Shown here piece by piece: positions 5,655 to 6,327 of a stretch of DNA of 64,000 nucleotides. The notes below the pieces were generated by a model. That model did no database searches and was not told the origin of the DNA. It saw nothing but the letters and a program-made list of their open reading frames with translations. The stretch's first letter is position 1. Every line of letters begins with the position of its first letter. The DNA is from Escherichia coli. Lineage in GTDB: Bacteria; Pseudomonadota; Gammaproteobacteria; Enterobacterales; Enterobacteriaceae. Made by a program: the position numbers and the translations under genes. The stretch lies in NCBI RefSeq assembly GCF_003334815.1, contig NZ_QOWO01000023.1. The stretch is one strand, 5' to 3'.

Positions 5655-5739
5655 GGTGGGGTTCCCGAGCGGCCAAAGGGAGCAGACTGTAAATCTGCCG
5701 TCATCGACTTCGAAGGTTCGAATCCTTCCCCCACCACCA
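5655..5739 (+). tRNA. tyrT: tRNA-Tyr (anticodon GUA), promoter-proximal copy
   Basis: 85-nt exact match to E. coli tRNA-Tyr (GGTGGGGTTCCCGAGCGGCCAAAGGGAGCAGACTGTAAATCTGCC...CCACCA) with encoded CCA. Confidence 0.97.
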
Positions 5740-5948
5740 TAATTCACCACAGCGATGTGGTAACTTCGGTGAGATTGTGAAAGTTTGCACTCATCGGGGA
5801 AGGGTGAGAACCTTCGACTAAGGTTCGATTCGAGCGAAAGCGAGAGAACGTTGCCACAGGCAACGGCCCGAAGGGTGAGGAGCGAAGCGACGAATAATCC
5901 TTCCCCCACCACCATCTCAAGCATTACCTCAAAATTTGAATTACCCCT
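5740..5948 (+). repeat. 209-bp inter-tRNA spacer containing an rtT-like unit
   Basis: identical to 6034..6242; ends with a mimic of the tRNA 3' end (CCTTCCCCCACCACCATC). Confidence 0.85.
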
Positions 5949-6033
5949 GGTGGGGTTCCCGAGCGGCCAAAGGGAGCAGACTGTAAATCTGCCGTCATCG
6001 ACTTCGAAGGTTCGAATCCTTCCCCCACCACCA
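5949..6033 (+). tRNA. tRNA-Tyr (anticodon GUA), middle copy
   Basis: 85-nt sequence identical to the copy at 5655. Confidence 0.97.
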
Positions 6034-6242
6034 TAATTCACCACAGCGATGTGGTAACTTCGGTGAGATTGTGAAAGTTTGCACTCATCGGGGAAGGGTG
6101 AGAACCTTCGACTAAGGTTCGATTCGAGCGAAAGCGAGAGAACGTTGCCACAGGCAACGGCCCGAAGGGTGAGGAGCGAAGCGACGAATAATCCTTCCCC
6201 CACCACCATCTCAAGCATTACCTCAAAATTTGAATTACCCCT
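6034..6242 (+). repeat. 209-bp inter-tRNA spacer, second copy
   Basis: 100% identical to 5740..5948 by eye. Confidence 0.85.
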
Positions 6243-6327
6243 GGTGGGGTTCCCGAGCGGCCAAAGGGAGCAGACTGTAAATCTGCCGTCATCGACTTCG
6301 AAGGTTCGAATCCTTCCCCCACCACCA
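6243..6327 (+). tRNA. tyrV: tRNA-Tyr (anticodon GUA), distal copy
   Basis: 85-nt sequence identical to the other two copies; followed by the rtT unit. Confidence 0.97.

Follow-up and report, generated by a model that had tools for sequence, protein, structure and literature searches.

A tandem tRNA-Tyr array between purU and narI

The stretch of Escherichia coli DNA that we analysed (64,000 nucleotides, called the window here) holds exactly three tRNA genes according to ARAGORN, all of them tRNA-Tyr with anticodon GTA and all on the + strand. Rfam models return three tRNA matches at 53.4 bits over the same array, together with three RtT matches at 133-134 bits (132.9, 132.9 and 133.8 bits against a gathering threshold of 45 for RF00391, each spanning model positions 1-130 of 130). 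By its sequence and its setting, with purU on one side and narI on the other, the array is the tyrT operon of E. coli. Its parts lie along the window as follows, with R175, R178 and J34 standing for repeat and junction units that are defined below.

4653-5495, + strand: purU (formyltetrahydrofolate deformylase), the upstream flank, from the annotation of the GF124.3 locus and base-for-base alignment with it
5577-5604, + strand: tyrT promoter, TTTACA, a 16-nt spacer and TATGAT (promoter scan, 10 of 12 matches)
5655-5739, + strand: tRNA-Tyr(GUA) copy 1, of the tyrT type (tRNA-Tyr1), with a long variable arm and with CCA encoded (ARAGORN, Rfam, identity to K-12 tyrT/tyrV)
5740-5948, + strand: spacer 1, parsed as R175 and J34, identical to the single MG1655 spacer (Rfam RtT, 132.9 bits)
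5949-6033, + strand: tRNA-Tyr(GUA) copy 2 (ARAGORN, Rfam, string comparison)
6034-6242, + strand: spacer 2, identical to spacer 1, with R175 at 6034-6208 (RtT at 6077-6208) and J34 at 6209-6242
6243-6327, + strand: tRNA-Tyr(GUA) copy 3 (ARAGORN, Rfam, string comparison)
6328-6505, + strand: a lone downstream 178-nt tRNA-linked repeat, with RtT RNA at 6374-6505 (Rfam RtT, 133.8 bits)
6506-6688, no strand: unique tail, which separates the repeats from narI and has the same sequence as in K-12
6689-7366, - strand: narI (nitrate reductase gamma subunit), the downstream flank, by base-for-base alignment with GF124.3

The promoter is followed by a G+C-rich discriminator, GCGCCCCGC, and then by the leader, and a terminator scan places a hairpin resembling a terminator of narGHJI inside the tail, at 6649-6670 on the - strand. 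Direct string comparison shows that all three 85-nt tRNA genes are identical to one another, that the 209-nt spacers at 5740-5948 and 6034-6242 have the same sequence, and that 5655-5948 is thus repeated exactly at 5949-6242 as a 294-bp unit of tRNA plus spacer. An earlier note on this DNA had described the three identical genes, with their positions and lengths, and the two identical spacers that make up two full units and a third tRNA; ARAGORN, Rfam and string comparison bear it out on every one of these points. Tandem Repeats Finder gives a period of 294, 2.9 copies and a score of 1376 for the array. A repeat search frames the two copies of 294 nt, at about 100% identity, 5 nt further upstream (5650-5943 and 5944-6237), and in that shifted frame they differ by a single mismatch, 5653 versus 5947, just before the tRNA gene. 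Chance cannot account for an exact 294-bp tandem repeat.

We divided the locus wherever the 19-nt tRNA 3' end, AATCCTTCCCCCACCACCA, occurs, writing T for a tRNA gene, R175 and R178 for the RtT-containing tRNA-linked repeats of 175 and 178 nt, J34 for a 34-nt leader-like junction, and Ra, Rb and Rc for the 178-nt units of MG1655 in their order. Parsed in this way, the window reads T-R175-J34-T-R175-J34-T-R178-tail. Spacer 1 divides into R175 at 5740-5914, whose RtT RNA (5783-5914) ends in the 19-nt copy of the tRNA 3' end, and J34 at 5915-5948; the same 19 nt terminate every R175 and R178 unit, repeating the 3' end of the upstream tRNA.

The source background and the downstream repeat

The window aligns base for base with the GF124.3 locus from position 78 to position 50000, and GF124.3 (NZ_CP172173.1) is 99.9% identical to it over 2201 bp, with the same array layout. 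Identity is about 99.95% to both K-12 J53 and GF124.3, which sets the background divergence from K-12 at about 0.05%, and the window comes from a phylogroup-A-like close relative. Among complete genomes, none is 100% identical to the window. We considered whether the window is K-12 itself and rejected this, as its narI allele at 6757 is the common non-K-12 one and it has seven private SNPs in 43 kb; K-12 therefore serves as a comparator only. The three-way SNP counts among the window, GF124.3 and K-12 J53 are star-like (5, 17 and 7), which speaks neither for nor against a clade of the window with GF124.3.

Three smaller observations concern this background. Nine of the 17 sites at which GF124.3 alone differs from both the window and K-12 J53 fall in the LDR region, at 23430-23894, a cluster of about 460 bp within three LDR (ldr toxin) repeats at window positions 22587-24130, which suggests gene conversion between LDR copies in GF124.3 as the source of the clustered differences. 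The private SNPs of the window against GF124.3 and K-12 J53 lie at 8331, 13040, 20960, 30023, 45337, 10506 and 34110, and the first five of these are G-to-A on the same strand; in a sample of seven, this excess could be chance or a mutational bias of the source strain. Finally, window positions 1-77 have no match to GF124.3 at the corresponding position, and their end, ...GCACCTTCC, adjoins CTAA; this end resembles a terminal inverted repeat of the IS5 family, and the putative element would be inserted some 280 bp upstream of hns.

The tyrT-tyrV operon of MG1655 shares with the window its position between purU and narI, its promoter and leader, its tRNA, its 209-bp spacer and its tail. The interval from the purU stop to tRNA copy 1 (5496-5654) is identical to K-12, and the 85-nt tRNA-Tyr gene has an exact match in K-12 ER3413, in MG1655 and in every other locus examined. 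In MG1655, two tRNA-Tyr1 genes are followed by 178-bp repeats containing rtT/rttR and tpr, which parse as T-R175-J34-T-Ra-Rb-Rc-tail; for the downstream part, Egan & Landy (1978, as cited in PMC8144298) gave the classical description "178 bp repeated 3.14 times". The description of the K-12 locus as a tandem pair in the earlier note was accurate, since MG1655 and ER3413 both carry two genes. Against MG1655 the window has one more tRNA-plus-spacer unit (+294 bp), a single 178-bp RtT unit in place of three (-356 bp) that is itself an Ra/Rb chimera, and an interruption in the tpr-like open reading frame. The purU-narI intergenic region of the window is 62 bp shorter than that of MG1655 (1193 versus 1255 bp) because two 178-bp RtT units are absent despite the extra 294-bp unit, and not about 294 bp longer, as the earlier note had predicted for a PCR product across the locus.

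In a site-by-site comparison with Ra, Rb and Rc, the lone R178 unit agrees with Ra at informative sites 24, 25, 27, 29 and 42 but with Rb at sites 83, 92 and 101, which correspond to window positions 6410, 6419 and 6428. On this pattern of alleles the unit is a chimera, formed by an exchange between neighbouring repeats within positions 43-82, and the loss of Rc would reflect either a second exchange or the same event. When the full R178 query (233 nt) was searched, no complete genome matched it throughout. We also considered 6410, 6419 and 6428 as clustered private mutations and rejected the idea, as the 55-mer that surrounds them is 100% identical in 1155 genomes, MG1655 among them. The R178 unit of GF124.3 is pure Ra and differs from that of the window at these same three positions, and its contraction history is a different one despite the common three-tRNA layout. 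The tpr-like open reading frame of the window, beginning at 6395, reads MRSFD and then meets a stop at codon 6 (CAA to TAA at 6410). The same T is present at this site in unit Rb of MG1655, which argues against tpr as a conserved coding gene.

Copy number of the array among E. coli genomes

The frequency of such arrays was estimated with a 68-nt probe over the J34/tRNA junction, which counts tRNA copies minus one, in 5426 complete RefSeq E. coli genomes. The probe matches 4817 of the 5426 genomes (4888 places in 4819 records), with a maximum of four junctions in one genome, which implies up to five tRNA copies. Two-copy genomes make up about 88% of this census, and the 69 surplus junctions place the number of genomes with at least three copies between 23 and 69 (0.4-1.3%). 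A further 609 genomes (11%) lack the junction; A39, the case checked, is confirmed as single-copy, and the others could have either a single copy or a divergent junction, such that one-copy genomes amount to up to 11%. The junction is also found in 14 records of a plasmid collection, all non-mobilizable and each with a single junction; three of them, at about 4.8-4.9 Mb, are evidently chromosomes filed as plasmids, and two are from Salmonella, where the tandem junction and tRNA match at 94% identity.

Three other probes were set aside. One of 55 nt, from the 5' part of the spacer, is unsuitable for counting tRNA genes in that it also counts expansions of R175 (five matches for two tRNAs in the strain Res13), and a 79-nt junction probe was replaced by the 68-nt one on account of a 36-nt match to the copy-1 leader and a strand-dependent joining of pieces. 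The third, a 285-nt "middle tRNA" probe, returned 745 genomes at a coverage of at least 80%, a figure that is invalid as a three-copy count because pieces from two-copy and R175-expanded loci were joined. Only its single-piece rows are informative, and these revealed K-12 lab strains, with XL10-Gold giving the same diagnostic single-piece match as the others. By annotation and parsing together we verified eight three-copy genomes, in five different layouts:

GF124.3: three copies, the layout of the window
GF4: three copies, the layout of the window
O157:H7 F1273: three tRNAs, then two R178 units
EC21: T-J34-T-J34-T, with 34-nt spacers that lack RtT
23CRST049: three copies with unequal spacers
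TOP10 (K-12 lab strain): T-R175-J-T-R175-J-T, then a variant 178-nt unit, Rc and Rc
XL1-Blue (K-12 lab strain): T-R175-J-T-R175-J-T-Ra-Rc-Rc
Origami2(DE3) (K-12 lab strain): the same layout as XL1-Blue

Close relatives differ in this respect: K-12 MG1655, ER3413 and DHB4 have two copies and TOP10, XL1-Blue and Origami2 have three, and other O157:H7 strains have two versus three in F1273. With A39, alleles of one, two and three tRNA genes are thus all verified. In GF4, F1273 and EC21 both spacers carry SNPs that no other parsed strain has (in GF4 J reads CTCGAAA, in EC21 it reads AAGTATT, and O157 F1273 has about seven such SNPs), so these expansions took place independently of one another and later than the SNPs that the spacer pairs share. 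This pattern indicates that three-copy expansions are recurrent, independent and recent.

The three-copy allele is already known, in the sense that it is annotated in public E. coli genomes, K-12 lab strains included, and our literature search found no published description of three-copy tyrT alleles in the collection of papers that it covered. The earlier note had presented three copies as a notable departure and had held that a three-copy reference for the source strain would undo this claim. Its count for the window stands, but its picture of a departure does not: the close relative GF124.3 has the same layout, which comes near to such a reference, and eight three-copy genomes are verified.

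The number of RtT units is spread more widely across genomes than that of tRNA copies, from 0 or 1 up to at least 14. The upper figure is from Res13-Lact-PEB21-38-A (NZ_CP062851.1, 2415-5055), which has five tandem R175 units between its two tRNA-Tyr genes and, beyond the second gene, nine or more R178 units, hence at least 14 RtT units in all, in a locus that exceeds the stretch examined. The downstream RtT units also vary within K-12: MG1655 shows Ra Rb Rc and ER3413 Ra Rc, against Ra Rc Rc in XL1-Blue, Origami2 and the J53 hybrid. The disagreement of K-12 assemblies in both RtT and tRNA-Tyr number may reflect either real instability in sublines or assembly and polishing noise. In some genomes an IS4-family transposase lies inside the tyrT locus between purU and narI, and one of these, HS13-1, is annotated with a single tRNA-Tyr.

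Such disagreement raises the question of whether the array in the window could be an artefact, with the extra 294-bp unit inserted by an assembler or polisher into a true two-copy locus. Tandem repeats are a classic cause of copy-number errors, the copy number here is known from the assembly alone, and the conflict among public K-12 sublines at this locus (Ra Rb Rc, Ra Rc or Ra Rc Rc) may be partly a matter of assembly or polishing. However, the whole array is about 1.1 kb, which is within single long reads and even within the reach of Sanger sequencing or PCR, and its layout recurs in independent assemblies from different laboratories and backgrounds. The spacer SNPs of GF4, F1273 and EC21 are present in both copies, as fits a real duplication, and assemblies by the same submitters also include two-copy genomes (GF31, Stbl4). 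We consider an artefact very unlikely.

A different alternative accepts the array as real and makes it old, with three copies kept alike by gene conversion (concerted evolution) and the two copies of K-12 as a derived contraction. Homogenisation is a known fate of tandem tRNA copies, the tandem junction is itself old, as its 94% identity in the Salmonella records attests, and contractions do occur, as in the single-copy alleles. Yet genomes with exactly one junction form about 88% of the census and those with more than one no more than about 1.3%, and the three-copy alleles are scattered over unrelated backgrounds in five layouts, with closest relatives that are two-copy; we regard an old array as exceedingly improbable. 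The one-junction majority, taken with the scatter and diversity of the three-copy alleles, argues that two copies are the ancestral and prevailing state, from which three have been repeatedly derived.

Origin and meaning of the third copy

We conclude that the third copy very probably arose by unequal homologous recombination, or replication misalignment, of tandem repeats, and that the window carries an ordinary copy-number variant of tyrT, a repeat locus long known as prone to recombination. A crossover between tRNA copy 2 of one sister chromosome and copy 1 of the other, over 85-91 bp of identity, would add exactly one 294-bp unit (tRNA, R175 and J34) and create no new junction, and its reciprocal products would be a three-copy and a one-copy locus. 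One-, two- and three-copy states, as predicted by unequal exchange, are all observed among genomes. The leader, tRNA, R175, J34 and tail of the window are all the same as in K-12, the structural change consisting only of one 294-bp unit gained and two 178-bp units lost, and no novel junction sequence or mobile-element remnant is seen at the unit boundaries in the window. A similar misaligned exchange among the downstream 178-bp RtT units would have removed two of them and left the chimeric Ra/Rb unit, and the mosaic in that unit is a direct footprint of exchange between adjacent repeats. We infer the mechanism itself from such footprints, which fit sister-chromatid exchange or replication slippage alike. 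Work by Russell and colleagues from 1970 is reported to have shown genetically that unequal recombination makes the tandem su3/tyrT genes gain and lose copies.

Recent unequal crossover was also one of two origins proposed in the earlier note, beside ongoing gene conversion, and it is the best-supported one, given that in GF4, F1273 and EC21 the two spacers of each genome are identical and share SNPs absent from the other strains parsed. The argument that the note offered for recency fares less well. Because background divergence is only about 0.05%, identity between copies is a weak clock that cannot date the event: over 294 bp, even a fairly old duplication should show fewer than 0.2 differences. 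The contrast that was drawn with SNPs among the LDR repeats is an unfair comparison, as the LDR copies are much older paralogues.

How might the third copy affect the cell? The promoter scan found only one promoter-like site upstream of the array (5577-5604) and none in the spacers. In K-12, tyrT and tyrV share the tyrT promoter (PMC2887954), and since the third copy stands behind the same spacer that precedes tyrV in K-12, we infer that it is co-transcribed. The three genes would be transcribed from the single tyrT promoter as one precursor, which would be processed into three identical tRNAs and RtT fragments, and the tRNA output of the operon could be raised by up to about 50%. An effect of the extra copy on tRNA-Tyr dosage, as predicted in the earlier note, is plausible, and the tRNA-Tyr gene count of the genome would go from 3 to 4 if tyrU is present elsewhere.

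It is tempting to ask whether cells benefit from this added dosage. Colicin E5 cleaves tRNA-Tyr, and other systems are known in which tRNA genes are amplified under selection. The effector PtuAB of retron-Eco7 depletes tRNA-Tyr, and extra tRNA-Tyr counteracts it (PMC11555353). The extra copy could then have been fixed by selection for more tRNA-Tyr, whether for translational demand or for toxin buffering, and not be neutral repeat noise, a reading that is compatible with the same recombination mechanism. We think this unlikely, as the frequency of three-copy alleles is low (about 1% or less), one-copy alleles may be commoner (up to 11%), and we see neither clade-level retention nor any link of the three-copy genomes to a habitat or defence system. 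A more far-reaching version would have tyrT act as a tunable "dosage dial", in which tRNA-Tyr units (1 to about 5) and RtT units (0 to at least 14) would often be gained and lost through RecA and would so supply standing variation open to selection, for instance against retron-Eco7 PtuAB or colicin E5. That the three-copy state is selected in this manner, and is not neutral noise, strikes us as highly improbable.

Setting selection aside, the variant carries little weight as a discovery but does have some practical value. Two tRNA-Tyr genes at tyrT are not safe to assume, even in K-12 lab strains, with TOP10, XL1-Blue and Origami2-DE3 annotated with three, and the copy number matters for supF/su3 genetics and for genetic-code expansion in which tyrT/tyrV is deleted or replaced. 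A purU-narI amplicon cannot be read as a tRNA copy number from its size alone, given the independent variation of the RtT units. The locus also offers a compact natural case of nested tandem repeats with readable crossover footprints.

Both layers of this nested array have counterparts among described systems. The repeats of the window match the tRNA-linked repeats of Rfam family RF00391 (RtT) at about 133 bits and end in the last 19 nt of the upstream tRNA, without any notable difference from that family; ending in the 3' end of the upstream tRNA is a feature described for these repeats in PMC8144298, according to which their function is still unknown. The tRNA layer is comparable to glyVXY of E. 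coli, which is likewise a variable array of identical genes, with three or four identical tandem copies depending on the strain (PMC4539685). That array involves another tRNA at another locus, whereas tyrT adds to the variable tRNA genes a nested RtT repeat system that varies independently of them.
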